64,000 bases of DNA from Candidatus Parvarchaeota archaeon. Its GTDB lineage: Archaea; Nanobdellota; Nanobdellia; JAFCGN01. This document shows positions 14,372-56,757 of the stretch, piece after piece. A model generated the notes under the pieces. That model was given only the letters and a program-made list of their open reading frames with translations, was not told the origin of the DNA and ran no database searches. The position numbers were made by a program, and so were the translations under genes. Within the stretch, counting starts at the first letter, position 1, and each line of letters begins with the position of its first letter. The stretch spans positions 47,407 to 111,406 of the forward strand of contig JAFCEQ010000001.1 of the NCBI GenBank assembly GCA_017609105.1, in the 5' to 3' direction.

Positions 14372-14534
14372 TTTTCCACCAATTTCATTCTTAATTACTC
14401 TTTTATTTTACCTTATTTTTTTCCTGCCACCTTATTCTTTATTTTCTTTTTTCTCCTCTTGCTTACCTTATTTTTCTCTTCTCCATCCCCTATTTTTTGT
14501 TTTCTTTTTTCTCCCTTTGTTTTGCCTTATTTTT
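14372..14534. repeat. ~160-nt leader/intergenic element, copy A (5' of rpl18, 3' of rpl19e); near-identical to copy B
   Basis: catttttccaccaatttcattcttaattactcttttattttaccttatttttttcctgccaccttattctttattttcttttttctcctcttgcttaccttatttttctcttctccatcccctattttttgttttcttttttctccctttgttttgccttattttt matches 15166-15326 with only a few substitutions and indels. Confidence 0.7.
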
Positions 14535-15372: not shown

Positions 15373-15984
15373 TTATCTTCCTCTGTTGCTATCGCCTTTG
15401 AAAGATTTTGTTTCTTTTGTTGTTCTTGTTGTTTTTTTAATTTTGTTAATGCTTTGTTTTTCTTCTGTTATTTCTTTTTGTTCTTGCTTTATTTCTGGTT
15501 TTCCTGTTTTTGCTTTTTCTTTTTCAGCTTTTTCTTTTGCTTTTTTCATTCTTTCTTTCTTTTTGTTTTTTCTTTGTTCTGATTTCTTTTTTCTTTCTTT
15601 GATTTCTTTTTGTATTTTCTCTAATTTTTTTTCAATTTTTTTAGTGTTCGCTATTCTTATTTTGAGTTTTAAAGCATTTTCTAGGATTTCTTTTATTGTT
15701 TTTTTGCTGAGTTTTGAGTTTAAGACGAATATGTAATTGTTAAGAGTGTCTTTTTTTTCTTCTATTATTTTTTTAAATTGTTTTTTTGAGTTAATGATTA
15801 TTTGTTCTAATCCTGATGGGTGTTTGAATCTTTGGTTTTTTGGTTTCATAAAGCTTGGGTCTGGCATTTTAAAAGTTTTTTTCTCTTTTCTTCTGACTTT
15901 TGAGTGCATGCCTTTTGGTTTCCTCCATGCCATGCTAAGTTTTTTTCTTTTATGAAATTCTCTTCTATGAAATTTTTTACTCAT
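15373..15984 (-). CDS. rpl32e: 50S ribosomal protein eL32 with a long K/E-rich C-terminal tail
   Basis: WRKPKGMHSKVRRKEKK...KHPSGLEQ...IRIANTK matches the eL32 core (WRKPRG..N.VRR, PSG, I.VTN). It lies between rpl6 and rpl19e. Confidence 0.85.
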   Translation of the reverse strand: MSKKFHRREFHKRKKLSMAWRKPKGMHSKVRRKEKKTFKMPDPSFMKPKNQRFKHPSGLEQIIINSKKQFKKIIEEKKDTLNNYIFVLNSKLSKKTIKEILENALKLKIRIANTKKIEKKLEKIQKEIKERKKKSEQRKNKKKERMKKAKEKAEKEKAKTGKPEIKQEQKEITEEKQSINKIKKTTRTTKETKSFKGDSNRGR

Positions 15985-25877: not shown

Positions 25878-27419
25878 TCAAATTTTTTCTTTAAGAAGGG
25901 CTTCAATAGAATACCTATTCTCTCTTGTTATTTTTTCAGGATTTGTTACATGAAGAAAGGTTATTTTTTCTTCATCAAATCCTATCCTATTTCTTTCCTC
26001 ATCTATTTTTACTACTTTCTTCCATCTTCTCATATCTTCTTTTATTTCTTTTAATTCAATGTTTAAGTCTTTCAATATTTTTCTGAATTCTTTTCTAAAG
26101 TTTTTAAAATTTTCAGGAAGTTTATTATCTTCTTTTCTTATCCTATAAGCAGTAATTTCTTTTTTATTAGGAGGTTTAACTTTTACTTCTTCTAATAACC
26201 CTGCTTTTTTTGCAACGAGCAAGTGCAAATTAATTGAATTTTTTGAAGCATGCATAAATGTTTGTAGATAATTCTTTGTTTTGAATGATTTATGTCTTAA
26301 AATATCTGTTAAAAAATAAAATCTAAGCAATGAAGAATTATTACTGAATTCTTGATTATATTCAAAAGATGACATAAAATATTTGTATTCTTCTTCATTC
26401 ATTACTTGAGAAGCAAGTTCACTTAATGGTGGAATAAAGAATTTCACAGCTTCAAAATTATAATTTTTTTCTTTTAAAACAGCGGATTTGCTGAGAATTG
26501 CTTCAATTCCTACTGTTCTTATCTCACCAATTCTTCTGAAACCTCCTTTCGGGTCTCTTGTTAAAACTTTTCTCCCCCTATTAATTAATGAGTACACACT
26601 CATTGGATCGCAGAAATCATTTATTAAACAAGAATTACAAGCATTTTTATCATAAATATCTAAAAAAGTTGGCTTGTTTTTTTTTAATTCTAAAAGCTCG
26701 GAATGCGTTTTTCTAACTTTCTCTTCAAGAAGTTCTTCTCTTCCAAACCTTTGTATTTTAATTCCAGAACTCTCCTTATTAAATAAAAAGTTAATTAAAA
26801 GTCCTTCATCAGACGGAAGATTATATTCTTCTTCGCAAAGAATATTATATAATAAAAGTTGTAATTTAGGTTTTTCAAAATTTGTTTCATTTACTTTTAA
26901 ATCAATAGGCACTGCTTGTTTCTTGTTTTCTCCCCAAAACTCAATTTTATCAGGAACTCCTACAAGTTTTTTATTTAATCCTTTTAATCTTTCAATTCTT
27001 CCATCAAGAAGGATTGCGTCCTCAAAAACTCCTTCCACAGAGTATAAATTAAATTTCTCGTCTAATGCAGAAACATACCTAGCGTAGTTCAAAGAAGATA
27101 ATTCATTAATAAACGCGTTTATCACGTTTTCTTGCAATTCAAAAGATATGAGTTTTGGTTTTGGAATTAAAAAATTGTTTTCATATGATTCTTTGAAATC
27201 TGAAAAAAAGATTTCATCATTAAATCTTTTATGAACAAGTTGTTTATCAATCCTAATTGATTGAGAAAACAAATTATGAGCAAGAGTATCAATTTCAATT
27301 ACAGGAGTGTAAATATGCCTTCCTTTTCCTAACCAATGCCTCCAAAGCCAATAATTATAACATGTGCTGAAATCCACGAGTTCTGACACACTATTATAAT
27401 TTCTTCTGCCTTTTTTCAT
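25878..27419 (-). CDS. Cas4-like / RecB-family PD-(D/E)xK nuclease with Fe-S cysteines, fused to a ~250-aa C-terminal domain of unknown function
   Basis: N-terminal Cys in SELVDFSTCYNYWLW, motif II ILLDGRIERL, motif III VPIDLKV, QxxxY motif KLQLLLY, and three-Cys cluster CNSCLINDFC (C-x2-C-x5-C) at ~aa 260. The protein continues ~250 aa further. Confidence 0.6.
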   Translation of the reverse strand: MKKGRRNYNSVSELVDFSTCYNYWLWRHWLGKGRHIYTPVIEIDTLAHNLFSQSIRIDKQLVHKRFNDEIFFSDFKESYENNFLIPKPKLISFELQENVINAFINELSSLNYARYVSALDEKFNLYSVEGVFEDAILLDGRIERLKGLNKKLVGVPDKIEFWGENKKQAVPIDLKVNETNFEKPKLQLLLYNILCEEEYNLPSDEGLLINFLFNKESSGIKIQRFGREELLEEKVRKTHSELLELKKNKPTFLDIYDKNACNSCLINDFCDPMSVYSLINRGRKVLTRDPKGGFRRIGEIRTVGIEAILSKSAVLKEKNYNFEAVKFFIPPLSELASQVMNEEEYKYFMSSFEYNQEFSNNSSLLRFYFLTDILRHKSFKTKNYLQTFMHASKNSINLHLLVAKKAGLLEEVKVKPPNKKEITAYRIRKEDNKLPENFKNFRKEFRKILKDLNIELKEIKEDMRRWKKVVKIDEERNRIGFDEEKITFLHVTNPEKITRENRYSIEALLKEKI

Positions 27420-27447
27420 TTTAATTACAACTTATAAATTCAAAACA

Positions 27448-27471
27448 CTTTTTTTAAAGATTACTAATTAA
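27448..27471 (-). promoter_or_regulatory. Promoter-like element shared with tuf (22-nt identity ttttttaaagattactaattaa on the plus strand; TTAATTAGTAATCTTTAAAAAA in gene orientation)
   Basis: Identical 22-mer at 43537-43558 upstream of EF-1alpha. It ends in the TATA-like CTTTAAAAA ~35 nt before the Cas4-like ATG. Confidence 0.35.
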
Positions 27472-27579
27472 CAACTAAGGCCTCTTAATAATAAAAGTGT
27501 ATAATTCAATATATGTTTTATAAATCAATATTCAATGTGAATAATTGTTTAAAAAAGATGACAGGATTTTATAGTAATA

Positions 27580-30096
27580 ATGAGTGGTGGATTGGAGGAA
27601 AATTTAGAAGATTTAGTTAAAGAGAACGTGTTTGGTTCTAAAATTTTTAGAAAAAACAGTCAAAAAATAATAGCGATTAGCAATCCTTTTTTTAGTGATA
27701 AAGGCATAGCTGTTTCTTTAGAAAGATGGGAGGATTATTGTAAAGTAATTGATAAGTTTTTTGATAAAAAAGGAGATTTTTTTATTCTTGGAGGAGCAAT
27801 AAGCCCAACAAGATTTCATTATTCTAAAAAAAATGTTAAAACCTTGGAACAAGAAATGATGCCTAAGAACCTTGAAGAAATGTTTCCTACTAAGAAAGCT
27901 TTTGAACAAAAACTTTACTATAAAATTGAAAGATTAAAAAAATATATAGAAAAAATTCCTGCAAAAGCAAATATTTATTATCTTATGACAGACACTGATA
28001 ATAAAACAATTGAGGACATCACAAATTTTTATGTTGACTTATTTACTCAAAGAATAACATTAATAAAAAAGAATTTAGATAAATTCCAAGAACTTTATTT
28101 AAAATGGGATGAATTTGATAATGAATTCCAACAAATATTAGAATTGCAAGCAGCAATAGGTAAAAAACTTGGTGGCAATCGTTCTGGTTTGGCAAAAACA
28201 AAAAATGAAAAAACAAAAAAAAGATTGGAAAAAAACATAAAGAGGTTGGAAAAAGAGTTAAAGAACGGGGAGAAAACTATTGAAAAATTTGAAAACAAAA
28301 AACAGAATTATTATAATAAAATAAAACAGAAGTTTGAATTTGTGAACAAATTAAATGAAGAATTAAAAAGCAAGAATTTGTTTTTTATGGAAAAAGAGTT
28401 AACAGATATTGTCAATTCTTTTAATGAAATCAATCCATATTCAGAGTCAATTCTTTCAGAAATAAGCGTTCTTGATTCAAAAATTAGTGATTATTTAAAT
28501 AATCTTGAAAGAAAAATCACTTTTAATGAATGGAATAAGAATTCAAGAATAACTAAAAGGGATTTACCAAATGATATTTTAGCTAAAATAAATGAAACAG
28601 CTAAAAGAGAATATGTTACTCTTTTAGAAAGTGCTGGACTGAATATTATAACACCTGAAATTAAAAAAGAATTAGTTGATAAATTAATTAATGTTTCTTA
28701 CACTCCAATGAGAGTGTTGAAATCTAATGTAAAGAATTTCAGACAAGAACTTGCTATAGAAAAAATGAATAGAGAGATTAAAGAGCGGGTTTTTTTAGTT
28801 GGGAATGATTATTGCTTTAGAGCTCAATCCTTTGTAGTTAATAATAAAGGAGATTTTGTTTATGAAATTACTGTAGGGCCTTTTTTTAATACAAAAAAAG
28901 CAAGAGAACTTTCAAAAAAAGGAATTAAAACAGAAGCAACAAAATTAGTTAATTCATTTGAATCAGTTCAAGGAATGGTTTTCATAGATTATGATCCGAA
29001 AACAACAGCAAGATTTTGTTTCTTACAGGATCATGAATTAGAAACATTTCTTCAACATTTAGAAAAAGAAGATAAAGAAAATTTATTATGCATTGCTCAT
29101 ATTTCAGACCAACATAATACAAAGAGAAATTCAAGAAGAGACCTAATTTTAGGAACAAAACTATTTTTAAGAGAAGATAATAGCCTTGAGAAATTAATTG
29201 AGACAGGAGATTTAACGCAAGGTGTTGGTAATTTCAGCGGAGAACAACTTGCAGGAGTTAATATGCGTCTTGAAGACCAAGTATATGTTGCTGCAAAATC
29301 ATTATTTAACATGTCACTTCCAATAATAAGAAGATCTAGATTAAAACAACCAATCACAACAATAGAAGGAAATCATGCAAAAGGAACAACAAGAATTGGT
29401 TTTAGACCTACTGTTGCTATAACAAATATTTGTAACTTAATTTATAGTATTTCAAACACAAATCAAACAATAAAAAAAACAATTGAAGTAGAAAAAAATG
29501 ATTTACTAATAGAAGAAGGTTTAATACCTCCAGAAAAACCGTTTTACACTGTTTTCTCAAACGGGCCTGAAACAGGAGGATTTATTGATTTTAAATTAAA
29601 GAATAATGAAAGTTTTGGACAAGCTTATGTTAGTCATAAAACTCCAGGAAGAGCTGATAAAGCAGACCCAACTTTAAGAGCTTTTTCTCATTTCAAGGAA
29701 TTAGGAAGATTAAATAAAAACGTTAGAATGGTGTATTTCGGGCACTCGCATCTTCCAGCAACAGCATTAATTGGCGGACTTCACTTGCAATGCGGCGGAA
29801 GTTATGAAGGAATGGATTACAATATTGAATTCCCTCACAAAAATGATTCTTCTTATGCTTACATGGCAGGATTCCCTCCTGCAGCAATGGGTTTTTGGAA
29901 GAACTATGTGGCTAAAGGCAATAATGGCATACAAGGGTTTGTTGTTTCAGAATTCATAAGCCACAAATTATTAGATAGAATAGTTAATGAATATAAAATA
30001 GAAGACAAAACAATTAGAGATATTTTAATTGAGAACGCACTAGAACCAAATGAACTTCCTTCTTCTATTCTTGCAAGATATAAGAAGATTATTTAA
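27580..30096 (+). CDS. Large protein with a K/E-rich coiled-coil segment and a C-terminal Mre11/SbcD-like metallophosphoesterase domain
   Basis: Motif I CIAHISDQHN (aa ~500), II ETGDLTQG (~541), III IEGNHA (~598), V/VI YFGHSHLP (~716). The spacing resembles Mre11. Coiled-coil KKRLEKNIKRLEKELKNGEKTIEKFENKKQNYYNKIKQKFEF at aa ~210-260. No Walker A. Confidence 0.55.
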   Translation: MSGGLEENLEDLVKENVFGSKIFRKNSQKIIAISNPFFSDKGIAVSLERWEDYCKVIDKFFDKKGDFFILGGAISPTRFHYSKKNVKTLEQEMMPKNLEEMFPTKKAFEQKLYYKIERLKKYIEKIPAKANIYYLMTDTDNKTIEDITNFYVDLFTQRITLIKKNLDKFQELYLKWDEFDNEFQQILELQAAIGKKLGGNRSGLAKTKNEKTKKRLEKNIKRLEKELKNGEKTIEKFENKKQNYYNKIKQKFEFVNKLNEELKSKNLFFMEKELTDIVNSFNEINPYSESILSEISVLDSKISDYLNNLERKITFNEWNKNSRITKRDLPNDILAKINETAKREYVTLLESAGLNIITPEIKKELVDKLINVSYTPMRVLKSNVKNFRQELAIEKMNREIKERVFLVGNDYCFRAQSFVVNNKGDFVYEITVGPFFNTKKARELSKKGIKTEATKLVNSFESVQGMVFIDYDPKTTARFCFLQDHELETFLQHLEKEDKENLLCIAHISDQHNTKRNSRRDLILGTKLFLREDNSLEKLIETGDLTQGVGNFSGEQLAGVNMRLEDQVYVAAKSLFNMSLPIIRRSRLKQPITTIEGNHAKGTTRIGFRPTVAITNICNLIYSISNTNQTIKKTIEVEKNDLLIEEGLIPPEKPFYTVFSNGPETGGFIDFKLKNNESFGQAYVSHKTPGRADKADPTLRAFSHFKELGRLNKNVRMVYFGHSHLPATALIGGLHLQCGGSYEGMDYNIEFPHKNDSSYAYMAGFPPAAMGFWKNYVAKGNNGIQGFVVSEFISHKLLDRIVNEYKIEDKTIRDILIENALEPNELPSSILARYKKII

Positions 30097-36379: not shown

Positions 36380-36811
36380 ATGGAGTGCGATTATTTTTTT
36401 ATCCTGTACAATAATATTAATTATGGTTTTGCTTTAATATTTGATAAAAGAGTTTATAGAACTAATTTAGAGAATTTTTTGAGAAGTATTGGATTTAAAT
36501 TTAAAAATGAGTTAAGACCGAATTATGTTAAGAATGCTTTGCTGAACTATGATTTTCTTCAAATATATGATTTTGATAGGATTAATGGATGTTTGTTTGT
36601 TGAATCAACGTTTAAAACAAAAAAAATTATTGGTAAGAATAATGTTTGTTTTAGTATTAAATTCTCTTTTTTTGATGAAACTGAACGCGTTGAAACAATA
36701 TTTGATTTAGAAAAAATTTTAAAATCATGTTTAAAACCAATCACTTTAGAAGAGCTCATAAAAGAAGTTCAAGAACATTATAAAAGAAACATATTAGAAG
36801 CACATGTTTAA
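36380..36811 (+). CDS. Hypothetical protein
   Basis: 143-aa ORF with no motifs. Confidence 0.3.
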   Translation: MECDYFFILYNNINYGFALIFDKRVYRTNLENFLRSIGFKFKNELRPNYVKNALLNYDFLQIYDFDRINGCLFVESTFKTKKIIGKNNVCFSIKFSFFDETERVETIFDLEKILKSCLKPITLEELIKEVQEHYKRNILEAHV

Positions 36812-36921
36812 AAAAAATACTAATAACAAATAATAACTCCTTAATAATTGATTGCTTGTTATTATTTTTGTCTAACAAAATCTTTAAAAAACAGTAATAA
36901 TATTTAATTATTAATATGCTC

Positions 36922-36947
36922 CCTGCCATTGCTTCGGCAACGGCAGG
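36922..36947 (+). terminator. GC-rich hairpin with a UUCG tetraloop followed by a T-tract (terminator-like or a small structured RNA)
   Basis: cctgccattgc-ttcg-gcaacggcagg, then ttcttatcttttgttatatttttttt. It lies 110 nt downstream of the 36380-36811 ORF. Confidence 0.35.
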
Positions 36948-37028
36948 TTCTTATCTTTTGTTATATTTTTTTTGTTAATACCTACCCATAACATAAAATT
37001 AATATTTATATAAAATTTCAATTTGTAA

Positions 37029-37565
37029 ATGGAAAGAGTTTGTGTATTTATTGATGGAAGCAATTTCTATTATGGATTGAAATCTCTTAATCTAAACAAC
37101 AAAAAATTGGATTTTTTTAAATTAGGTGAATTGCTTGCTGGAAAGAAAAGAAAACTTATAAGAGTTTACTACTACAATGCTCCTTTGGATCAAGCAATGA
37201 ATAAGGAAAAGTACAAGGCACAACAACGTTTTTTTGAAGAGTTGAAAAAAACAAAAAAAGTAAGTATTATTCTTTGCAGAATGCAAAAAAGGAAAGTAGA
37301 TGGGAGGATTATTTATGCTGTTAAAGAAGATGATATTCGTATTGCTGTAGATATGTTAAGATACGCTTATAACAATGCATACGATACTGCAATCCTTGTT
37401 AGTGGGGATGGAGATTTTGTGCCAGCAGTAACTGCTGTTCAAGAACTTGGAAAATCTGTTGAACACGCTTATTTTAAGATAGGTCATTCTTATCATTTAA
37501 GACAAATATGTGATGATTCCTTCCTGTTAGATAAGAAATTCATAAAAAAATGCTTAAAAGAATAA
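37029..37565 (+). CDS. NYN-domain (LabA/DUF88-like) PIN-fold ribonuclease
   Basis: VCVFIDGSNFYYG...AILVSGDGDFVPAV match the NYN acidic motifs. Confidence 0.65.
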   Translation: MERVCVFIDGSNFYYGLKSLNLNNKKLDFFKLGELLAGKKRKLIRVYYYNAPLDQAMNKEKYKAQQRFFEELKKTKKVSIILCRMQKRKVDGRIIYAVKEDDIRIAVDMLRYAYNNAYDTAILVSGDGDFVPAVTAVQELGKSVEHAYFKIGHSYHLRQICDDSFLLDKKFIKKCLKE

Positions 37566-37680: not shown

Positions 37681-37735
37681 ACAAGTTTAAAAAATATAAG
37701 AATACTTTAAAAGCTTATCTTTCTTTTTTTGCAAG

Positions 37736-38779: not shown

Positions 38780-38929
38780 TCCTTGTTTTATTAATAATTC
38801 ATAACAATTTTTTAAGCAAGAGAGGAGTTCTTAAAAAAAATCATACTAAGTAATAAAAATAAAATAAAAAATCGAAAGTAATTTAAATAAGATTGTATTA
38901 TAAAAATGTTAAGAGCGCCTAGGAGGGGT

Positions 38930-39148
38930 TCAAGGCGTCTCTTTTTTATTTTTTTTTAAATTTTTTTTAAACCCAATCCAACATGTTTTACAATATTTTG
39001 TGGAATGTTTTAAGGAGAAAGAATTTTTTATTTCATAATAATTTTCTCCTTTTCTAATAATGTTTTGACACTTAAAGCACCTATGAGGTTTTCTTGCTTT
39101 GCGAATGAAAACGAGGTTTCCTCTTTTTGTTTTAAAAACTCTTGGCAT
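38930..39148 (-). CDS. Small basic Zn-ribbon protein
   Basis: 72 aa with CFKCQN...CKTCW (two CxxC pairs). Confidence 0.3.
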   Translation of the reverse strand: MPRVFKTKRGNLVFIRKARKPHRCFKCQNIIRKGENYYEIKNSFSLKHSTKYCKTCWIGFKKNLKKNKKETP

Positions 39149-39202
39149 TAAGGAATTAGTAAGGGATAGTTATTAATAATTGTTTGTGAATAATTTAATT
39201 GT

Positions 39203-39979
39203 ATGATGTTAAGAGTCACGCCTGAATTAAATGAGGTTAAGGATATAGTAAGTGTTGGTGTTAGGAATAAATGGTTAGTAGTATTAGTAGGAGTTTTCGG
39301 AGTGAATTATAAGGGCAGGGCTATTAGTGAATTAAGCTGTGGTGAGCGTTTACTGATTATTAAGCCGGATGGTTGCGTGTTAATTCATAATAGCGAGGGT
39401 GTTAATCCTATTAATTGGATGAGAGAGGGTTCAAGTATTAATGCAAAGCTTGATGAAGAAGTTCTTAACATTAAAGTTCTTAACATTAATCCTAGGGAGG
39501 AGTTAGTATTAAGGATTCAAAAAGTTAGCGTGGTCTTCACTAATGGTTTTAGTAGTGTTGGTGAGTTGCGCGTTATTGGGAGTGAAGCTGATATGGCAAG
39601 AAAGATTTATGAGAATCCCAGTGTTATCTCCAAGAATTTTAAGCCTGTTAGTTTGGAAGAGCAAACCAAGTACGGTTTCATTGATGTTCTTGGGTGTGAA
39701 GGAGAGGATTATGTGGTAGTGGAGTGCAAGCGTTATAGAGCTGGTTTAAGCGGGGTTCAACAATTACGCAGGTATGTTGAGAAGTTTAAGAAAGCGCGCG
39801 GGATTAATAATGTTAAAGGAGTTCTCGCAGCTCCAAGTATTACGAAGAACGCTTTTAAAATGCTTACTGATTGGGGTTTCAGTTATAAGCGTGTTGAACC
39901 TCCGATGCACTTAATTGGTGAGAAAACAGTTCAAGAAAAATTAAGTAAGTTCTTGCATGAGAATGAAACTAAGAATTAA
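39203..39979 (+). CDS. nucS: Endonuclease NucS / EndoMS (mismatch-specific RecB-like nuclease)
   Basis: The C-terminal domain GFIDVLGCEGEDYVVVECKRYRAGLSGVQQLRRYVEKF matches the NucS catalytic D...E.K + QxxxY core, and the size is ~250 aa. The gene is visibly G-rich compared with its neighbours. Confidence 0.65.
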   Translation: MMLRVTPELNEVKDIVSVGVRNKWLVVLVGVFGVNYKGRAISELSCGERLLIIKPDGCVLIHNSEGVNPINWMREGSSINAKLDEEVLNIKVLNINPREELVLRIQKVSVVFTNGFSSVGELRVIGSEADMARKIYENPSVISKNFKPVSLEEQTKYGFIDVLGCEGEDYVVVECKRYRAGLSGVQQLRRYVEKFKKARGINNVKGVLAAPSITKNAFKMLTDWGFSYKRVEPPMHLIGEKTVQEKLSKFLHENETKN

Positions 39980-39990
39980 AAAAAGTTTTT

Positions 39991-41091
39991 TTATTTCTCG
40001 TAAGCATTGATTATCTCAGCATAAGAGTATTCAGGGGTTTTGTAAACAAGTGTTTTCGCCCAAACCTTTAAAATAAATGGTTTATCCTGAACATTGTAAT
40101 TAATATCAAATTCAAAATCCCTCCACTCCTTGAATCCTTTTTCTTTTGAAAAAGAAATTTTTTCTGTCTTATTTGTTAATACACTCCCGTCTTCTCCTAT
40201 TAATTCAATCTTAACACTTGTTATGTTATAAACATCTATGAAACCAATTTTTTCTAATTCAACGTATAAATCTTTTTCTCCTACAAAAGGCAACCACTTT
40301 GGAGCATGAGAAGTTAATCCCCAATTATCTTCATAATGAGCTTCTTGCACTTCTTCTGGAAGGTCCTTGAATAAGGGCATGTCGCAGTAAATCTTGCCTC
40401 GCACTCTTGTTTTATTATTAATTATTTTATATGTTAAGTTCTCAATATTGCAAAGCGTGTTATATTCTGTTTTGTTTTCACTCCACTTAATTGTTTCAGG
40501 CATAGTATTGTTAAAGAATTTTTCAGAAATCTGAAATGTTTTATTACTTCCATTAGCATTAATGAGAATATAGCCTTTGCAAGAAGAAACAATAGAATCA
40601 TCCCTATTCTTAAATTGCAGAACATAAGGAACTCTTGTTGTAAACCAAGAAGAATGATTGCTAAGATTTGTTAAATTAATGTTAATATTTGTTTTAAGTG
40701 TTTTCTTGCCTTTAACAAAATTATCAGAAAGTGAAATGCTAATGCAATTAAAACAAGTATTTGAACTATTTTCTAAAAAAAGTTTTTCAAATCTTTGAAT
40801 CTCATAATCATCAGTTATTATTATTGACTCGTTTGGAATAACTTCAAGGAATTTATCATTGCAATAAACATTATCTGCTTTTACAGGAAGTGAAAAAACG
40901 CTTTTATTCATAATATCTGTGGCATTAATTGTAAGATTAAAATCAGTGCAAACTGGATTAGTTTCTTCAATATCTCTTGCACAACCTAAACCTTCTCTGT
41001 CAAAAACAACCATTCCTGTAGTATTAGTGCACCCAAATAAAAAAGAAACTAAGAAAATGCTAATAAAAAAAATCATTTCTTTTTTAATCAT
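39991..41091 (-). CDS. Secreted or lipoprotein-like hypothetical protein
   Basis: Signal-like N-terminus MIKKEMIFFISIFLVSFLFGCTNTTG, with many N-x-S/T sequons. Confidence 0.4.
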   Translation of the reverse strand: MIKKEMIFFISIFLVSFLFGCTNTTGMVVFDREGLGCARDIEETNPVCTDFNLTINATDIMNKSVFSLPVKADNVYCNDKFLEVIPNESIIITDDYEIQRFEKLFLENSSNTCFNCISISLSDNFVKGKKTLKTNININLTNLSNHSSWFTTRVPYVLQFKNRDDSIVSSCKGYILINANGSNKTFQISEKFFNNTMPETIKWSENKTEYNTLCNIENLTYKIINNKTRVRGKIYCDMPLFKDLPEEVQEAHYEDNWGLTSHAPKWLPFVGEKDLYVELEKIGFIDVYNITSVKIELIGEDGSVLTNKTEKISFSKEKGFKEWRDFEFDINYNVQDKPFILKVWAKTLVYKTPEYSYAEIINAYEK

Positions 41092-41154: not shown

Positions 41155-41463
41155 TTAATCAACTATTTGCATTTCAATATTAACATCTTTTGGGATTTGA
41201 ATTTTAATTATTAATCTTAATGCTCTTTCATCAGCTTGTAAATCAATTAATCTTTTATGCACTCTTAATTCCCAAGTTTCATAAGATTCTCTTCCACTCC
41301 CGCAAGGACTTCTTCTTACAGGAACTTTTAATTTTTTTGTCGGAAGTTTTATTGGACCTTTTAATGGAACTCCTGCTCTTTCAGCAATGCTTTTAATTTG
41401 CTCGCATAAAGCATCTAATTTCTTTGGATCCGTACTTAATAATTTAACTCTTGCTTTTGACAT
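41155..41463 (-). CDS. rps10: 30S ribosomal protein uS10
   Basis: [50 protein letters not shown]...HKRLIDL. Confidence 0.9.
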
Positions 41464-41479
41464 AACGAGATATCACAAC

Positions 41480-41510
41480 AGTTTAATTTAAAAAGTTTAT
41501 GCTACTTATA
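41480..41510 (-). promoter_or_regulatory. Candidate rps10 promoter (TATA-like TTTTTAAAT in gene orientation preceded by the conserved AAGTAGCATAAAC motif)
   Basis: A 16-nt motif aaagtttatgctactt on the plus strand is shared with the EF-2 upstream region at 45958-45973. The TATA-like box lies ~30 nt before the ATG, so the mRNA is probably leaderless or has a short leader. Confidence 0.35.
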
Positions 41511-41586
41511 TTTTTATAAGGACAATATAATATAAGTAAGTGAAAAAAACAAAAAAATTAAGTAATTAATGAACATGGGGGAATAA

Positions 41587-42138
41587 ATGAGAGCATTAAA
41601 ACTTTATGTTAATACTTCAAACCTTTTTACTAATAAGGGGATTAAAGTTTCTGAAATAGAAAAGGATTTTCTTTTTTCAAAGGATTATTTGTTTTTTGAG
41701 AATACAAAAAAAATTGATTTTGAAGAATTTAAGGGATTCATTAATCTTATTAAAAGAAATTCTTTTAGTGTTGAAAATTTTTCAGAAGGAGGTAATAAAG
41801 TTTTTGAGATTATGAGAAAAAAAAATTTAACAATGTTAAGTGTTTCAAAAAAAGGGCTTGAAGAATTTCTTGAAATCCTGATTCCTTATAGGAATGTTTT
41901 GTCTTTTGAAAACAAAGAACATTATTTAATAAAAAACAAGGAGTTATATTATATTTATTCAAGTAATAAGAGGAGGAAGTTAAGATTTGAAGAAATGTTT
42001 TTGGATGTTGGGAGTTTTAAATTTGAAAAATCGCGGGTACTGCCTTTGTTTCCAAAATTAAGCAATAAAAATTCTTTGCACGCGACTTATAAAAAGTATT
42101 TTAAGAATAAATTATTAGAAGAAATAATTCTTTGGTAA
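41587..42138 (+). CDS. Hypothetical protein inserted on the opposite strand between tuf and rps10
   Basis: 183-aa ORF with ordinary composition. It is flanked downstream by a hairpin plus T-tract. Confidence 0.35.
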   Translation: MRALKLYVNTSNLFTNKGIKVSEIEKDFLFSKDYLFFENTKKIDFEEFKGFINLIKRNSFSVENFSEGGNKVFEIMRKKNLTMLSVSKKGLEEFLEILIPYRNVLSFENKEHYLIKNKELYYIYSSNKRRKLRFEEMFLDVGSFKFEKSRVLPLFPKLSNKNSLHATYKKYFKNKLLEEIILW

Positions 42139-42181
42139 AACCTTTTCAAAAAATTTTTTTAAAATAATAAAAATAAAGGTT

Positions 42182-42204
42182 AAAGGCGTTTCCGCCTTTT
42201 TTTT
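42182..42204. terminator. Bidirectional hairpin terminator between convergent tuf and the 41587-42138 ORF
   Basis: aaaggcg-tttc-cgccttt followed by a T-run on the plus strand. The reverse complement is likewise followed by a T-rich stretch. Confidence 0.4.
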
Positions 42205-42212
42205 AATTGTTT

Positions 42213-43484
42213 TTACGCTTTTTCTATAATGTCTATGCAAACGCCAGCTCCAATAGTTGAGCCCATGTCCCTGATTGCAAAACTTGATAATTGTGGTATA
42301 TCTGATTTCTTTTCAATAACCATTGCTTTTGTTGGTTCTATTTCAACAATTGCTGCGTCTCCTGTTCTTAAAACATCAGGGTTTTCTTCTAAAACTGCTC
42401 CTGTTTTTGGATCAAGTTTTTGCAATAATTTTGTGAATTTGCATGCAACTTGACTTGTGTGGCAGTGGAATACTGGTGTGTATCCTACTGTTATAACAGT
42501 TGGATGATTAAGCACTATGATTTGTGCTTTGAATTTCTTAGCCACTGTTGGTGGGTTATCCACTGGACCTAAAACATCTCCTCTCTTAATTTGGTCTTTT
42601 CCAACGCCTCTTATATTGAATCCGATATTGTCGCCAGCTTCTGCTTTTTGATATGATTCATGATGCATTTCTATGCTTTTCACTTCTCCAACAACATTGC
42701 CAGGTTGCACAACAACTTTTTGCCCTACTTTCATTTCTCCAGTTTCAATCCTGCCAACAGGAACTGTTCCAATACCTGTTATTGAATAAACATCTTGGAT
42801 TGGAAGTCTTAATGGCAAATTAACTGGTGGTTCAGGCACTTCAAACAAGTTAAGTGCTTCAACAAGTGTTGGTCCATTATACCATTGCATTTTATCGCTT
42901 TTCTTTACTATGTTATCTCCCATTAATGCGCTTACAGGCACGAAATGCATTTTTTCTACATTATACCCTATTCCTCTAAGAAGTTTTGATAATTCTTCTT
43001 TTACTTCATTGTATCTTTTCTCATCATAATTCACAGTATCCATTTTATTGATTGCTACATTAATTTGTTTAACTCCTAAGACCTTACTAAGGTATGCGTG
43101 TTCTTTTGTTTGTGGCATTATACCGTCTTTTGCATCAACAACTAAGATCGCTGCATCAGCTTGGCTTGCTCCTGTGATCATGTTTTTAACAAAATCCCTG
43201 TGTCCTGGAGCGTCAATAACAGTAAAGTAGTACTTGTCTGTTTCAAATTTTCTGTGCGCTAAGTCAATTGTAACTCCTCTTTTTCTTTCTTCTTTTGTTG
43301 CATCAACAGCATAAGCGAACTCCCAAGTTCCCTTTCCATATTCTTCTGCTTCTTTTTTGAATTTTTCAAGATCTTGTTGAGAAAGTGCTCCTGTTTCATA
43401 GAAAACTCTACCAATAAGAGTTGATTTTCCGTGGTCTACATGTCCTATGAAGACCAAGTTCATGTGTGGTTTATCTTTTGCCAT
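42213..43484 (-). CDS. tuf: Translation elongation factor EF-1alpha (aEF1A)
   Basis: [18 protein letters not shown] and NKMD G-motifs, with full-length collinear EF-1A sequence. Confidence 0.95.
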
Positions 43485-43536
43485 AATTACATCACCTATT
43501 TTATCATGAGTTTGCTTTATTGAATAAAAATCAATT

Positions 43537-43558
43537 CTTTTTTAAAGATTACTAATTA
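43537..43558 (-). promoter_or_regulatory. Candidate tuf promoter element (22-nt identity with the Cas4-like gene upstream region)
   Basis: ttttttaaagattactaattaa on the plus strand. An AGGTGAT SD lies 8 nt before the tuf ATG. Confidence 0.35.
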
Positions 43559-43601
43559 ATTTATTTTTATTATTAATAATCTTTTATTAGTATTGATTTT
43601 T

Positions 43602-45785
43602 TTATTGGTTTATGCCTTTTCGTTGTTTTATTTTCTTTATTGTTTCTTCTTGTAATTCTCTTGGGATTCTCTCGAACTCTGAGTCCTTTAAAGACCAAAC
43701 GCCTCTTCCTTCAGTTTCACTTCTTAAAGCACTTGTAAACCCGAACATTTCTGCGACAGGCACTTTTGCTGTAATAACAACAAGAGATGGTTGTTGTTCC
43801 ATGTCTATTAATTGTCCTCTTCTTGATTGAATGAGTTTGTTCACAGAGCCCATAAAATCTGTTGGAACATCTATTCTTATTGTTTGAATTGGTTCAAGCA
43901 AGGTGTATTCAGTGCTCATAATCGCGCTTTTAATAGCATCTCTAACAGCAGGAATTACTTGTCCCGGTCCTCTGTGTATTGCATCTTCGTGAAGTTTTAC
44001 GTCCACAAGTTTTACTTTAATCCCGCTTACTGGTTCTTTAGCAACAGGACCTGCTTTCATCACGTCTTCAAATCCTTGCATAACCATTTCTATAACTTCT
44101 TTTATGTGAACTTCTCCTTTTGTCATGTCTAAAAGCAAGTTTCCGTTGTAAATATCAACTACTGACCTGCTTTCTTCTTTTGAAAGTCCTGCTTCTTGTA
44201 ATTTTGTCTGTAATTCAGGAAGTTTCTTTTTAATTCTTCTTTCTTGAATATCCCCTTTCATTATTGCTTCATAAACTTCTTTTTCAAGTGGTTCAACAAA
44301 AATGTAGAACTTATTGTGTTTGTTCGGAGATTTTCCTTCCATTGTCTCGCTTTGTTTTTGAACAGTTTCTCTATAAACTACAAGGGGTTCGCTTGTGATA
44401 ATCTTTATACCTCTGTCTCTTTCAATAATATGTTCTTTTATTTCAAGATGTAATTCTCCAAGCCCGCTGATTAAATGCTCGCCTGTTTCCTCATTTATTT
44501 CTACTTTTAATGTTGGGTCTTCTTTTACAAGATCTCTTAAAACCCTTATTAATTTTGGAAGGTCTTTTGGGTTTTTCGCTTCAATTGCTTTTGTTACAAC
44601 TGGTTCAAAAATGTGTTTAATGTCTTCAAATGGTGTTAATTCTTTTTTTGTAGTTAATGTTTCTCCACTGCTTGCGTTCTTAAGTCCAGAAAGTCCTACA
44701 ATGTTTCCTGCTGGAACTTCTTCCATTGAAAATTTATGATCTCCTTTAAAAATGTATATTTGTTGGATTCTTTGATCACTTATAGCTTTAACAAGATGAA
44801 TGTCCATTCCGCTTCTTAAAGTGCCGCTGAAAATCCTGCCAACAACTAATTCTCCTGCTTGAGGGTCTACAATAACTTTTATTGCACAAAAAATAGCAGG
44901 TCCTTTTTCATCACAATTAAGCAATGCTTTTCCTTCAGGACTTTCTAAATCTCCTTGCCAAATTTTTGGAATCCTGTATTTTTGTGCTTCCACAGGATTT
45001 GGGTAATGATGCACTGCCATATCAAGCACTGCTTCATGAAGAGGTGCTTTTTCTTGTAATTTTTTTAATGCTTCTTTTCTTTCCTCTTCTTCTAAAGCAT
45101 ATGCATTATAAACATCTTTAAAGTTTATTCCTTTCTTTTTCATTATAGGAACACTTAAAGCCCATTTATCAATAGCACTGCCAAATGCTACAGTCCCGTT
45201 ATCAACGCGCACTTGCCATTCATTCTTAAATTCTTTTGGTGCAAAGGAATAAATTAACTTGTTTATTTTGCCAATCATTTGAGTTAATCTTTCTTGCATT
45301 TGCTCAGGCGTTAATTTTAATTCATTTATTAACCTGTCAACCTTGTTTATGAATAAAACAGGTTTTACTTTTTCTTTTAATGATTGTCGTAAAACTGTTT
45401 CTGTTTGAGGCATTGCACCTTCAACAGCGCATACAACAACAAGAGAGCCGTCCACTGCTCTCATTGCTCTTGTAACATCTCCTCCAAAATCAACGTGTCC
45501 TGGAGTATCAATTAAGTTAATTAAATATTCCTTGCCATCAACTTCGTGCACCATGTTCGCTGTTGCGCTTTGAATCGTAATCCCTCTTTGCTGTTCTTCA
45601 TCCATTGTGTCAAGAGCTCTTTGTTGTCCTGCAGTCTCATAAGAAAGCATTCCTGCTCCTGCTAAAAGAGAATCAGAAAGAGTTGTTTTTCCATGATCAA
45701 TATGAGCGATTATTCCCATATTCCTTATTCTTTCTTTTAATCCAATCAATCGTTTAACTTTATCAATCATTGTTTCCTTTGCCAT
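43602..45785 (-). CDS. fusA: Translation elongation factor EF-2 (aEF2)
   Basis: AHIDHGKTTLSD, DTPGHVDF, NKVD and the diphthamide-region residues. Confidence 0.95.
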   Translation of the reverse strand: MAKETMIDKVKRLIGLKERIRNMGIIAHIDHGKTTLSDSLLAGAGMLSYETAGQQRALDTMDEEQQRGITIQSATANMVHEVDGKEYLINLIDTPGHVDFGGDVTRAMRAVDGSLVVVCAVEGAMPQTETVLRQSLKEKVKPVLFINKVDRLINELKLTPEQMQERLTQMIGKINKLIYSFAPKEFKNEWQVRVDNGTVAFGSAIDKWALSVPIMKKKGINFKDVYNAYALEEEERKEALKKLQEKAPLHEAVLDMAVHHYPNPVEAQKYRIPKIWQGDLESPEGKALLNCDEKGPAIFCAIKVIVDPQAGELVVGRIFSGTLRSGMDIHLVKAISDQRIQQIYIFKGDHKFSMEEVPAGNIVGLSGLKNASSGETLTTKKELTPFEDIKHIFEPVVTKAIEAKNPKDLPKLIRVLRDLVKEDPTLKVEINEETGEHLISGLGELHLEIKEHIIERDRGIKIITSEPLVVYRETVQKQSETMEGKSPNKHNKFYIFVEPLEKEVYEAIMKGDIQERRIKKKLPELQTKLQEAGLSKEESRSVVDIYNGNLLLDMTKGEVHIKEVIEMVMQGFEDVMKAGPVAKEPVSGIKVKLVDVKLHEDAIHRGPGQVIPAVRDAIKSAIMSTEYTLLEPIQTIRIDVPTDFMGSVNKLIQSRRGQLIDMEQQPSLVVITAKVPVAEMFGFTSALRSETEGRGVWSLKDSEFERIPRELQEETIKKIKQRKGINQ

Positions 45786-51948: not shown

Positions 51949-53766
51949 TTACATCTTATCCTTAAGATTAAGTTTTGGATAAATGCATAAAGATTTTAGT
52001 TCATCCAATAAAAGCTTGAATGCATAACTCATCTCCACAAAACCTATTTCAGTGTTTTCTCCGCATATAAGACACATTCCTTTCTTCCTGAATTTATTGT
52101 ATATAGCAACATTACCGCATTTCTTGCACACAGGGATTTTTGTTTTATCTGAATCAAATCTCTCTTTTAAAAGCAAAGAAGCTCCGTGCGCTACAAAGCA
52201 ATGATTCTCCATTTCTCCAAGCCTTAATCCTCCTTCTTTACTTCTTCCTTCTGTTGGTTGTCTTGTTAATAATTGTATTGGTCCTCTTGAACGACTATGT
52301 ATTTTATTTGCAACCATGTGCTTTAATTTTAAATAAAATGAATTACCTATGAAGATTCTTGCTTTATATTGTCTTCCTGTTTTTCCATCATACATAATCT
52401 CAGTGCCATCATCCTTGAATCCTAATTCAATAAGCGTGTCTCTTAATTCCCTTTCAGATTCTGAACTGAATGGTGATGCATCAACAAACTTTCCTGATAA
52501 CGCTCCTACTTTTCCGCCAATAATTTCAAGTAATTGCCCAACAGTCATACGACTTGGTATTGAATGAGGACTGAAAATAACATCAGGTACTACCCCGCTT
52601 GCTGTAAAAGGCAAGTCTCTTTGAGGGACTAACATGCCGATAACACCTTTTTGTCCGTGCCTTGATGAGAATTTATCACCGATTTCAGGAATTCTTTGAT
52701 CCCTTATTCTCACTCCAACGAGTTTGTTCCCAGCATCACTATCTGTTAAAAGAACTGAATCAACAATGCCTTTTTCTTTAAATCTTACAGAAACGCTTGT
52801 CTCCCTTCTCTCTTCAACACCCATCTTGAATTCTTCTAAACTTGTTAAAAACCTTGGAGGGCTTGTTTTACCAACTAACACATCACCGGAATTAACAACT
52901 GCTTCTGGATAAATAATGCCATCTTCTTCAAGATGCCTGTAAACTTTTTCAGTTCTATATCCTTTTACTTCTTTGCTTGGTATTTCAATAGAATCTAATT
53001 GTCCTCCAGGATACCTTAATTCTTCTGTGAAATAAGGTCTGAAATACGTGCTCCTAAATAATCCTCTTTCAACACTTGATTTATTAAAAATTATTGCATC
53101 CTCCATATTATACCCGTGCCAACTCATTACTGCAATAACCATGTTTTGCCCGACAGGATGAGAATCATAATCCATTACATCATAAATGTAAGTATTAACA
53201 ATAGGTCTTTGAGGATAATGAAGAATATTAGCATCAGTATCCATTCTTAACAAATAATTAGAAGCGTAAACACCGATTCCCTGCTTCATTGTTTTAGCGC
53301 CAATCATTACTCTAACAGATAAATTATGCTCAGGGAAAGGCACCATGCTTGCTTTGCTTCCGAAAATTATTGCAGGACTTAATTCAAGATGCGTGTGTTT
53401 CGGGGTTAATTGAGATTCATCCAAAGCAATAAGCGTGTTCTCTTCTTCTTCTGCATCCAAGTACTCAATAACTCCTTGTTTAACTAAATCATTAAAATCA
53501 ATTTCACCTTTTTTCAATTGTTCATAAAGCTCTGTTGTAAACAAGGATTTACCATTTTTAACAACAATTAAAGGTCTTCTTGCTCTTCCTTTCTCAGTAT
53601 TTATGAAAACAATATTTTGATCCTCATCATAAGCAACATTAACTTCTTTAGGAAGATTGCCAATCCTTCTTTGTTCTCTTATGAATTCCACCCATTCCTT
53701 TGGATTATCACAACATCCTTCAAGCCTGCCATTTATATACACGTCTGCCATTTTTTTAATCACCAT
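51949..53766 (-). CDS. rpoB1: DNA-directed RNA polymerase subunit B' (Rpo2C, C-terminal half of B)
   Basis: GDKFSSRHGQKGVIG and a C-terminal Zn-ribbon CKKCGN...CLICG. Confidence 0.95.
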   Translation of the reverse strand: MVIKKMADVYINGRLEGCCDNPKEWVEFIREQRRIGNLPKEVNVAYDEDQNIVFINTEKGRARRPLIVVKNGKSLFTTELYEQLKKGEIDFNDLVKQGVIEYLDAEEEENTLIALDESQLTPKHTHLELSPAIIFGSKASMVPFPEHNLSVRVMIGAKTMKQGIGVYASNYLLRMDTDANILHYPQRPIVNTYIYDVMDYDSHPVGQNMVIAVMSWHGYNMEDAIIFNKSSVERGLFRSTYFRPYFTEELRYPGGQLDSIEIPSKEVKGYRTEKVYRHLEEDGIIYPEAVVNSGDVLVGKTSPPRFLTSLEEFKMGVEERRETSVSVRFKEKGIVDSVLLTDSDAGNKLVGVRIRDQRIPEIGDKFSSRHGQKGVIGMLVPQRDLPFTASGVVPDVIFSPHSIPSRMTVGQLLEIIGGKVGALSGKFVDASPFSSESERELRDTLIELGFKDDGTEIMYDGKTGRQYKARIFIGNSFYLKLKHMVANKIHSRSRGPIQLLTRQPTEGRSKEGGLRLGEMENHCFVAHGASLLLKERFDSDKTKIPVCKKCGNVAIYNKFRKKGMCLICGENTEIGFVEMSYAFKLLLDELKSLCIYPKLNLKDKM

Positions 53767-55280
53767 AATTCTTTCATTCCGTTCTTTTTGAAAAAATTAA
53801 ATAATTCTTCTTCGCTTACCTCAGGCTCAGTACTAATCTCTGAAGTAACAGCTAAATTTTTTCTTAAACCAACATTCGGGCCTTCAGGTGTTTCACTCAC
53901 GCATAACCTGCCCCAATGAGTAGGATGTAAGTCTCTTGCTTCAAAATTCTCCCTGCTTGAAGTAAGTAAAGAAACAACTCTTCTTAAATGAGATATCATT
54001 GAATAATGATTTATCCTATCTAAGTGTTGGCTTACTCCTTCTCTTCCTCCCATCCATTCTCCTGTTGCAAGCGCGCTTTTTATTCTTGAAGTAAGCAAAC
54101 TCGCTCTCGTAATCCCTGCTAAAGAAGGAGTTCTTCCTCTTTTAACAAGTCTTTCAAAATTATACTTCATATCACCTACAAGCATTCTGAAACTATACCT
54201 GAACAAGGTTTCCATTAAATCCCCTGACAACTTTAATCTCTTATTTGCATAATGATCCTTATCATCAGGTCTAAGTCTTCCATAACTAACAAGAAGCAAT
54301 TTTTTCACAGCCCTTCCTAAGAAAAAAGCTTTCTTCTTCCTATGCTTCACATCCTTTCCAATATGAGGTAATAAGAATTTATCAATAACTTCTTCTGCTT
54401 TTTCAACAGCTCTCTCTTCAGAATGCACTACTCCCATTTTCTTACCTATCATCATAAGTGCTTTCTTTTGAGAATCTATCTCATTTGCTTTATACAAGTT
54501 AATGTAAAGGTCTCCTTGAAGTTCTTCACCAACATTAATGGCATCAGAGATTTCTTTATCCTTCACTAAACCTAATGCTTTCATCACATAAACAAGAGGA
54601 ATTCTTTTAAGACGAGTAAAAGTCAAATAAATTATGCCATCCTTTCCTTTTTCAAAAACATGAGGAATCCTATACTGCCCGTCATCACTAAATACTTTAG
54701 CAACCCATGGGTAAGGTCCTGTTGTTTTCTTATCTTCCACAAACACTTTGTTCTGCGCTAAATCCTCTATTATAACAATCACTCTTTCAGTGCCATTAAC
54801 AATAAAATAACCTCCAGGATCTGTAGGGTCTTCATTATTTTTTATTAATTCTTGCTTATTAAGTCCTTTTAAATAACAATTATCAGATTTTAATAATATT
54901 GGGAGTTCACCAATTTGCACTGTGCTTTTCTCAGTTTCAACACCGTCTTTTATCATCTTCATTTCAAGCATTATTGGTGCTGCATACGTTAATTTTCTTA
55001 ACCTCGCTTCCACTGGCATTATCCTTCTTCTTGTTCCATCAGCTTCTCTCACATACGGTTTTTCAACCCATATTCTTCCAAAAACAATTTTTAATTCATT
55101 AACTCTTTCAGGAATTATGTCAGGAACTATTTCTTTAACTTCATCAACAACTCTCTGCATTCCTTTAAATAAAAACTTATTAAAAGAATCTATGCTATGC
55201 CCTACAAGCCCTCTATTCTCAAAATATTTTATTAACAACATATTATTATCATTTTTAACAACATTATTGTTTTCACTCAT
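53760..55280 (-). CDS. rpoB2: DNA-directed RNA polymerase subunit B'' (Rpo2N, N-terminal half of B)
   Basis: N-terminal RpoB domains. The gene overlaps the rpoB' start, and the split gene arrangement is present. Confidence 0.9.
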   Translation of the reverse strand: MSENNNVVKNDNNMLLIKYFENRGLVGHSIDSFNKFLFKGMQRVVDEVKEIVPDIIPERVNELKIVFGRIWVEKPYVREADGTRRRIMPVEARLRKLTYAAPIMLEMKMIKDGVETEKSTVQIGELPILLKSDNCYLKGLNKQELIKNNEDPTDPGGYFIVNGTERVIVIIEDLAQNKVFVEDKKTTGPYPWVAKVFSDDGQYRIPHVFEKGKDGIIYLTFTRLKRIPLVYVMKALGLVKDKEISDAINVGEELQGDLYINLYKANEIDSQKKALMMIGKKMGVVHSEERAVEKAEEVIDKFLLPHIGKDVKHRKKKAFFLGRAVKKLLLVSYGRLRPDDKDHYANKRLKLSGDLMETLFRYSFRMLVGDMKYNFERLVKRGRTPSLAGITRASLLTSRIKSALATGEWMGGREGVSQHLDRINHYSMISHLRRVVSLLTSSRENFEARDLHPTHWGRLCVSETPEGPNVGLRKNLAVTSEISTEPEVSEEELFNFFKKNGMKELW

Positions 55281-56637: not shown

Positions 56638-56757
56638 TCCCGCCTCCCGGATTCGAACCGGGAATCTCACGGTAACGGCTAATAAAGAACACGTGTTCGT
56701 GTTCAGCCCTTTAAACCTAACTACAGCCGTGCGCGTTAGCCATTACGCTAAGGCGGG
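56638..56757 (-). tRNA. tRNA-Tyr (anticodon GTA) with a 47-nt intron at the canonical 37/38 position
   Basis: Exons CCCGCCTTAGCGTAATGGCTAACGCGCACGGCTGTAG / ACCGTGAGATTCCCGGTTCGAATCCGGGAGGCGGGA. The C1-G72 pair is the archaeal Tyr identity element. Intron is TTAGGTTTAAAGGGCTGAACACGAACACGTGTTCTTTATTAGCCGTT. Confidence 0.75.

Follow-up and report, generated by a model that had tools for sequence, protein, structure and literature searches.

The locus described here raises the question of whether a gene whose base composition departs sharply from that of its surroundings must have come from elsewhere. The gene is nucS, predicted to encode the mismatch endonuclease NucS/EndoMS, and it lies in a 64-kb stretch of archaeal DNA (the window, meaning the whole stretch analyzed) with a GC content of 30.1%. 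The first-pass annotation had read the G-rich character of nucS as a possible sign of foreign acquisition. The gene is an intact nucS and its compositional anomaly is real, but the reading as a foreign gene is contradicted by its tree position, its synteny with a related genome (L004), and the parallel divergence of NucS and the host marker EF-2.

The gene, its protein and its surroundings

The open reading frame (ORF) is a complete NucS/EndoMS, in agreement with the earlier identification. Both Pfam domains of the family are found above their gathering scores (NucS_N, PF21003, 3.4e-20; NucS_C, PF01939, 9.3e-32), the NCBIfam equivalog for archaeal NucS (NF003270, cut-off 216 bits) is passed at 233.8 bits, and nearly the whole protein is matched by PDB entries 2vld (Pyrococcus abyssi NucS, 7e-45) and 5gke (Thermococcus kodakarensis EndoMS, 9.4e-43). 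The second codon is also an ATG, and a database copy of the protein (P0001) begins there, which is why the full 258-aa form had no exact database match. The features of the gene are as follows:

39203-39979, plus strand: intact nucS/EndoMS coding sequence, 258 aa (ORF list; Pfam, NCBIfam and PDB matches)
39275-39532, plus strand: PH-like N-terminal domain for DNA binding and dimerization, residues 25-110 (PF21003)
39308-39418, plus strand: region with the residues of the mismatch-base pocket, Y36, R39, N71 and W72 (alignment with T. kodakarensis EndoMS)
39459-39488, plus strand: perfect tandem duplication of a 15-nt unit, encoding VLNIK-VLNIN (repeat search, family D7)
39581-39919, plus strand: RecB-like C-terminal nuclease domain, residues 127-239 (PF01939)
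39683-39730, plus strand: catalytic motif D161 ... E174-C-K176, of the form D...ExK, invariant in 32 homologues
39932-39955, plus strand: PIP-like motif for clamp binding, Q244-E-K-L-S-K-F-L251, with a tail of 7 residues after it (homologue alignment)

Residue conservation was assessed in an alignment of the window NucS with 31 homologues (32 sequences). Residues Y36, R39, N71 and W72 align with Y41, R44, N76 and W77 of T. kodakarensis EndoMS, which contact the flipped-out G or T by stacking and hydrogen bonding (PMC6829318). Y36 is invariant among the 32 sequences, and R39 and N71 are nearly so. By their shared motif and near-identical numbering, D161, E174 and K176 are the likely counterparts of D159, E173 and K175 in Sulfolobus islandicus EndoMS, mutants of which are catalytic-deficient enzymes (PMC7736090). 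A PCNA-binding motif at the C-terminus, suggested in the first-pass annotation as worth looking for, is present as QEKLSKFL; Q244 is invariant in the alignment and the pattern Qxx(L/I)xx(F/Y) is common to the homologues. The tandem 15-nt unit is accompanied by no change in protein length relative to the aligned homologues.

Judged from these residues, the window NucS looks fully functional. By homology, the enzyme would act as a dimer that receives the two mismatched bases, flipped out, in pockets built from Y36, N71 and W72; both DNA strands would be cut by the D161/E174/K176 site, and PCNA would recruit and stimulate the enzyme through the C-terminal QEKLSKFL.

The EndoMS/NucS proteins of Thermococcales (5gke and 2vld) have the same two-domain architecture over their full length (E 1e-43 to 1e-45), and the Y/R/N/W pocket, the D...ExK motif and a C-terminal PIP-type motif are common to them and the window NucS. 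They are nonetheless clearly more distant than the homologues from DPANN archaea and serve as the tree outgroup; the window protein differs from them in the 7-residue tail that follows its PIP-like motif and in belonging to a mesophile-like DPANN genome of 30% GC. In the S. islandicus enzyme (SisEndoMS), the D/E/K residues and the DNA-binding positions R39 and W72 have almost the same numbering as in the window NucS, and the PIP box, QKLGLEF (PMC7736090), follows the same pattern as QEKLSKFL. Other DPANN NucS proteins (Woesearchaeota, Nanoarchaeota, "Parvarchaeota") are of the same family and length, at 39-59% identity to the window protein; many of the more distant copies carry Y at the pocket W position, while some keep W. 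The domains of actinobacterial NucS (NF002876) are homologous, but the window NucS reaches only 97 bits against a cut-off of 252 and so is not the bacterial equivalog. Bacterial NucS has a beta-clamp motif in place of the PIP box (PMC8228993).

The ORF list also agrees with the earlier description of nucS as the sole plus-strand gene between minus-strand genes, which are without family matches in Pfam or NCBIfam. Its immediate surroundings are as follows:

38911-38943: hairpin cgcct...aggcg with GGAGG in its loop (-16 kcal/mol, z=-1.9)
38930-39148, minus strand: divergent 72-aa ORF, zn72, upstream of nucS (ORF list)
39149-39202, no strand: AT-rich spacer of 54 bp between zn72 and nucS (sequence)
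39991-41091, minus strand: convergent gene downstream of nucS

The hairpin and the GGAGG exist as first described, but not just upstream of nucS: they lie ~260 bp away, beyond zn72, at the 3' end of that opposite-strand ORF, and were rejected as a ribosome-binding site or regulator of nucS. No terminator-like site was called. The 54-bp spacer directly upstream of nucS contains no GGAGG and presumably holds the promoters of both zn72 and nucS. It is 91% identical to that of the sister species represented by loci L002 and L005, compared with 41-57% for other intergenic stretches.

Rfam matches in the window are confined to six tRNAs, which leaves no known RNA family in or beside nucS. A tRNA-Ser gene is located 1.5 kb upstream, with two other genes between. 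No integrase or mobility genes were found among the neighbors with Pfam or NCBIfam, and a mobile cassette with flanking repeats was rejected, since the only flanking repeats seen are low-complexity, AT-rich matches at chance level. An inverted pair of 34 nt occurs at 37683/41120, in promoter-like spacers beside the tRNA and S10. The window as a whole carries archaeal ribosomal-protein, EF-2/EF-1alpha and RNA-polymerase clusters, and nucS is one gene beyond S10 in the window, L002 and L005.

Composition and codon usage

The composition of nucS was compared with that of the 73 other ORFs of at least 80 aa in the window, taken as the longest ATG ORFs and called mechanically; two that are probably spurious were left out of later tests. 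The G content of nucS is 0.270 against a mean of 0.180, the highest of the 74 ORFs, and the ~1.5-fold enrichment first estimated by hand proves exact. GC content is 0.378 against 0.301 (rank 2 of 74). At third codon positions, GC3 is 0.34 against ~0.22 (0.216) for the other 73 ORFs, G3 is 0.236 against 0.115 (rank 1 of 74), and A3 falls to 0.224 from 0.455, for an overall third-position mix of A.22, C.10, G.24 and T.44. The anomaly is present in both protein domains and ends at the ORF boundaries, with G ranging from 0.21 to 0.35 within the ORF and from 0.16 to 0.19 just outside it. The same anomaly is found in the sister species.

The codons responsible are, in part, those singled out at first as rare elsewhere in the window. 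GGT (55% versus 21%) and GAG (58% versus 15%) fit that description, while GTT does not: it supplies 59% of the Val codons of nucS against 55% outside the gene, and is the commonest Val codon everywhere in the window. Further differences from the rest of the window are seen for AAG (65% versus 18%), AGT (65% versus 23%) and ATA (6% versus 39%). In general terms, nucS shuns codons ending in A, with G taking its place in two-fold families and T in four-fold families.

A synonymous-only test, in which third bases were predicted for each ORF from its amino acids and the codon table of all the others, makes nucS the most extreme of the 74 ORFs. Its GC3 gives z=4.6, its G3 z=+6.0 (2.6 for the next gene) and its A3 z=-8.4 (-4.5 for the next), while C3 is normal. 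The outlier status persists when the background is limited to plus-strand genes, to local genes or to minus-strand genes. The composition anomaly is therefore real and strong, and nucS, as the top outlier of the window, falls outside the genomic codon range; the first of the two refuting results named in the first-pass annotation is thus not obtained. An antisense ORF that might constrain third positions was rejected, the longest stop-free antisense stretch being 78 codons with no ORF of at least 60 aa. Nor is nucS a general codon outlier of AT-rich DPANN genomes, given a mean G3 z of 0.3 across 68 loci.

The density of A/T runs is also the lowest in the window, at 2.6 per kb compared with a median of 15.5. 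Two runs of at least 5 are observed in nucS, against 8.2 predicted after recoding with host codons. On permuting the gene's own synonymous codons, the depletion of homopolymer runs is not significant (p=0.32). Homopolymer avoidance as a general rule, a "hardening" of the repair gene, was rejected, as relatives are without such a trend.

Relatives, synteny and recombination at the locus

Taxon names used here are those of the record titles, and relatives were compared over ~20 kb each. Most protein matches of the window NucS are unnamed, and the named ones are almost all from Woesearchaeota, Nanoarchaeota or unclassified archaea, with a lone exception in a partial record titled "Thermoproteota" (P0042). 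Among the best 80 of 305 genome loci with NucS, titles are of DPANN archaea save for ~20 "uncultured Methanosarcinales", which are probably unreliable. Titles within the lineage read "Candidatus Parvarchaeota" or Nanoarchaeota; that of L005, for example, is "Candidatus Parvarchaeota archaeon Meg22_810_Bin_165".

A neighbor-joining tree of 83 NucS sequences, rooted on two Thermococcales proteins and built without bootstrap, places the window NucS within a 17-member DPANN subclade. The window, L002 and L005 group together, with L004 as their sister. Next outward are L008, L009, L010, P0004, P0015, P0017 and P0023, then L006, L007, L015 and P0027-P0029, and finally all other DPANN sequences. L004, the nearest outgroup, has a NucS at 59% identity and is saturated at synonymous sites relative to the window. 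Relatives found through EF-2 (68-73% identity) are roughly equidistant from the window, but L004 is marginally the closest by EF-1alpha, S7, S12 and S10, which agrees with its sister position in the NucS tree.

Identities of NucS and EF-2 fall in step across these genomes: 89-90% and 91% in the sister species, 59% and 72% in L004, and 44% and 60% in L015. Thus, the phylogeny proposed in the first-pass annotation as a check for nesting outside the host clade gives a gene tree congruent with host descent, the second of the refuting results named there, as far as an unbootstrapped neighbor-joining tree and the small number of taxa with both genes allow. Gene order adds to this picture. In L004, nucS sits between EF-1alpha and S10, and only the window, L002, L005 and L004 have nucS linked to S10/EF-1alpha. 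Three other relatives with ~72% EF-2 identity (L085, L086 and L087) have other genes and no nucS in the EF-2/EF-1alpha/S10 interval. The site thus varies among relatives, and some lineages have probably relocated or lost nucS.

An identity profile in 100-bp steps against the sister species, together with synonymous divergence (dS) by the Nei-Gojobori method, reveals a further property of the locus. Two blocks of low divergence are seen:

39100-40300, no strand: low-divergence block of ~90% nucleotide identity to the sister species
36380-37565: second low-divergence block

The first block, 1.2 kb long, takes in the 54-bp spacer together with nucS and, from the convergent gene, its last ~100 codons. 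Within it, nucS has a dS of 0.36-0.39 and the C-terminal 100 codons of the neighbor one of 0.42, compared with ~0.9-1.3 for core genes. As the block includes non-coding DNA, it points to recombination and not to codon selection. Recombination is also suggested by L002 and L005, which are otherwise ~99% identical but differ sharply over a ~125-bp patch in the neighboring gene. Close relatives clearly exchange DNA by homologous recombination at this locus. Of note is that the flanks of nucS inside the block have host-typical codon usage; exchange can therefore explain the low divergence, but not the codon anomaly.

Origin of the codon anomaly

The best explanation of these data is that nucS has been inherited beside rpS10 and EF-1alpha at least since the ancestor shared with L004. 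On balance, and with moderate confidence, the gene is taken to be native to its DPANN lineage, and its atypical composition to be a long-lived, gene-specific codon bias. In an import that was fading toward host composition, GC->AT changes should predominate. With L004 as the outgroup, the synonymous differences that separate the window from L005 were polarized, and in nucS 10 changes were AT->GC and 7 GC->AT (17 changes in all, with a saturated outgroup). Decay from a GC3 of 0.34 to the host value of 0.21 predicts ~2 GC->AT changes per AT->GC change, from which the observed count differs at a P of about 0.03, with low power. Since a GC-rich outgroup tips the count in favor of decay, the test is conservative. 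In EF-1alpha, the same polarization yields 14 AT->GC and 37 GC->AT changes. A slow synonymous rate that merely lags behind AT drift was rejected as well, since it too predicts the GC->AT excess that is absent.

The excess is moreover not confined to the window species. In the 17-member clade, nucS has a higher GC3 than its neighbors at 7 of 7 loci, the mean excess being +0.11 (z 1.5-4.1), compared with +0.03 at 61 DPANN loci outside the clade (Mann-Whitney p=7e-5); most other DPANN nucS genes, unlike that of the window, are no codon-usage outliers. A single transfer cannot explain a clade-wide excess, because the lineages are far beyond synonymous saturation. The flavor of the excess varies within the clade, being G3-driven in the window genome, L006 and L007 and C3-driven in L004, L008 and L009, and this variation counts against the native reading.

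The most plausible cause of such a bias would be selection on synonymous sites. One route by which it might act is expression: non-preferred codons could limit how much is made of a nuclease whose over-production is toxic. Over-expressed EndoMS is toxic in S. islandicus (PMC7736090), and that toxicity has been shown in S. islandicus only; codon throttling in the present lineage would be an extrapolation from it.

The main competitor, possible but distinctly less probable, is lateral replacement at the same locus, in which homologous recombination would have exchanged the resident nucS for a related DPANN allele of ~37-40% GC, before or around the split between the window species and the L002/L005 species, with donor codon usage partly kept. 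The sharp confinement of the codon outlier to the ORF is the look of an imported or replaced gene, and counts for replacement and against a native gene alike. So do the codon backgrounds that fit best. Log-likelihood per codon for nucS is -1.01 on the backgrounds of L008, L009 and L004 and -1.14 on its own genome, so that its codons are more at home in relatives of 37-40% GC; related genomes span 30-50% GC, with the window lineage at the AT-rich end. The two readings also divide over the history of the site. A dS of 0.36-0.42 across the nucS block, compared with ~1.0 in core genes, implies that alleles were shared after speciation, the recombination patch in the neighboring gene is there to be seen, and the EF-1alpha/S10 interval varies among relatives, all of which favors replacement; the variable site and the lower divergence of the block are likewise points against the native reading.

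Other details are hard to reconcile with a replaced allele. The best donor fit of -1.01 is itself far worse than the median fit of a native gene to its own genome (-0.83). No blend of the host with a typical relative of 37-40% GC yields the third-position mix of nucS: its G3 is above and its A3 below the values of the host and of candidate donors alike, and its C3 already equals that of the host. Net GC->AT decay is absent, the flanks within the low-divergence block are host-like, the GC3 excess spans the whole NucS clade, and both tree and synteny look vertical. The native reading with a long-lived bias is retained here as the likeliest.

A more specific version of that native reading is improbable as it stands. 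It would have synonymous-site selection keep the subclade's only recognizable mismatch-repair gene rich in GC3 or G3 against AT drift, with the copy of this lineage nearly free of A/T homopolymer runs. Such usage might serve to throttle a toxic nuclease, or to shield a repair gene from the very mutational bias that it polices. That relatives show no avoidance of homopolymer runs counts against the native reading with selection as its cause.

Import from outside the host lineage or from outside DPANN, which would have given a genome without MutS/MutL a new form of mismatch repair, is very unlikely and is contradicted by phylogeny and synteny. Its supports are the atypical composition and the tRNA-Ser gene 1.5 kb upstream. 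Set against these are the named homologues, nearly all DPANN (most are unnamed, and P0042 and the doubtful "Methanosarcinales" titles are the exceptions), the place of nucS deep inside the DPANN clade with Thermococcales outside, the syntenic copy in L004, the parallel with EF-2, and the lack of mobility genes at the locus. Least credible of all, and refuted here, is an artefact of the Val, Gly and Glu content of NucS, of strand asymmetry or of chance: GC1 is fairly high (0.47, rank 8 of 74) and many DPANN loci show large strand-linked A3/T3 and G3/C3 swings between nucS and its neighbors, in both directions, but z-scores of 6.0 and -8.4 persist in the synonymous-only test, where amino-acid content no longer plays a part, plus-strand genes as sole background leave a G3 z of 4.8 and an A3 z of -6.8, and the unchanged C3 is at odds with pure strand skew.

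NucS/EndoMS is already recognized as the MutS/MutL-independent mismatch-repair nuclease of many archaea. Its distribution across archaea is wide, and NucS and MutS/MutL usually occur in complementary fashion across hosts (PMC8228993). Its occurrence in DPANN genomes is already known from database annotation, and finding it here has little import beyond annotation. The locus does offer a caution, in that a solid codon-usage anomaly is no evidence of foreign origin in this case, because synteny, tree position and the direction of substitution point to a resident gene. That one repair gene has kept a GC3 excess for so long across a whole subclade is a minor curiosity; if selection on synonymous sites is indeed the cause of this excess, it would bear on how a potentially toxic nuclease is regulated or protected in extremely AT-rich, reduced genomes.

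nucS and its neighbours

The codon bias of nucS (39203-39979, plus strand) has a counterpart in two DPANN loci of the same NucS clade, L006 and L007 (NucS 52% identical, genomes 41% GC). The nucS gene of these loci (positions 10001-10726) shows an anomaly of the same flavour, with third-codon-position G at 0.33-0.35 and A at 0.15-0.16, as compared with 0.19 and 0.38, respectively, in neighbouring genes. Within the window's nucS, a 15-nt unit occurs as two perfect tandem copies at 39459-39488 (VLNIK-VLNIN in the protein), and its length is the same as in homologues. One small ORF lies beside it:

38930-39148, minus strand: 72-aa ORF, divergent from nucS, that contains two CxxC pairs and ends in a Lys-rich tail

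No family match was found for this ORF, which also adjoins nucS in the sister-species loci L002 and L005 and is 81-82% conserved there. Farther upstream, the NYN-domain gene at 37029-37565 is present in L002 and missing from the otherwise collinear L005, and L002 carries ~6.5 kb of additional genes immediately upstream of its copy.

Other features of the window

25878-27419, minus strand: 513-aa nuclease of the PD-(D/E)XK superfamily
27580-30096, plus strand: 838-aa protein with no family match, adjoining the nuclease
14527-15165 and 15373-15984, minus strand: two very basic, ribosomal-protein-like ORFs with long Lys/Glu-rich C-terminal extensions
56638-56757, minus strand: 120-nt tRNA called by Rfam
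51949-53766 and 53760-55280, minus strand: adjacent ORFs, putative Rpb2 halves

The nuclease and its 838-aa neighbour (25878-30096) lie where the window is richest in AT. The two basic ORFs are possibly L19e and L32e, and their Lys/Glu-rich extensions account both for the extreme AT skew of this stretch (-0.6 to -0.7) and for a spurious ORF of 238-274 aa that reads in the other direction. The tRNA is absent from the ARAGORN output; it probably belongs to the archaeal tRNAs that contain an intron. The last pair of ORFs is collinear with genes annotated as Rpb2 in relatives and on this basis appears to encode RNA polymerase subunit B in two pieces; the subunit is likewise split in L085 and L087, and fused in L086 (1109 aa, L086 1003-4332).

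Probable homologous exchange and gene turnover

The window diverges from its sister species, as represented by L002 and L005, in a mosaic fashion. In the blocks 36380-37565 and 39100-40300, synonymous divergence amounts to 0.29-0.42, versus ~0.9-1.3 in adjoining core genes, a pattern suggesting that the two species underwent homologous exchange once they had separated. On a smaller scale, ~125 bp at ~40318-40440, inside an ORF (39991-41091) whose product is a probable surface protein, are sharply different in L005 from both the window and L002. Since L002 and L005 are ~99% identical elsewhere, this patch is a small recombination tract.

Gene content also differs in the interval between EF-2, EF-1alpha and rpS10 (window 41155-45785), where the inserted genes vary by relative among L004 (NucS 59% identical), L085, L086, L087 and the window. 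These insertions comprise a subtilase, a saccharopine dehydrogenase with a decarboxylase, PEP synthase-like and radical SAM genes, and nucS. The interval behaves as a gene-turnover hot spot within a conserved operon.
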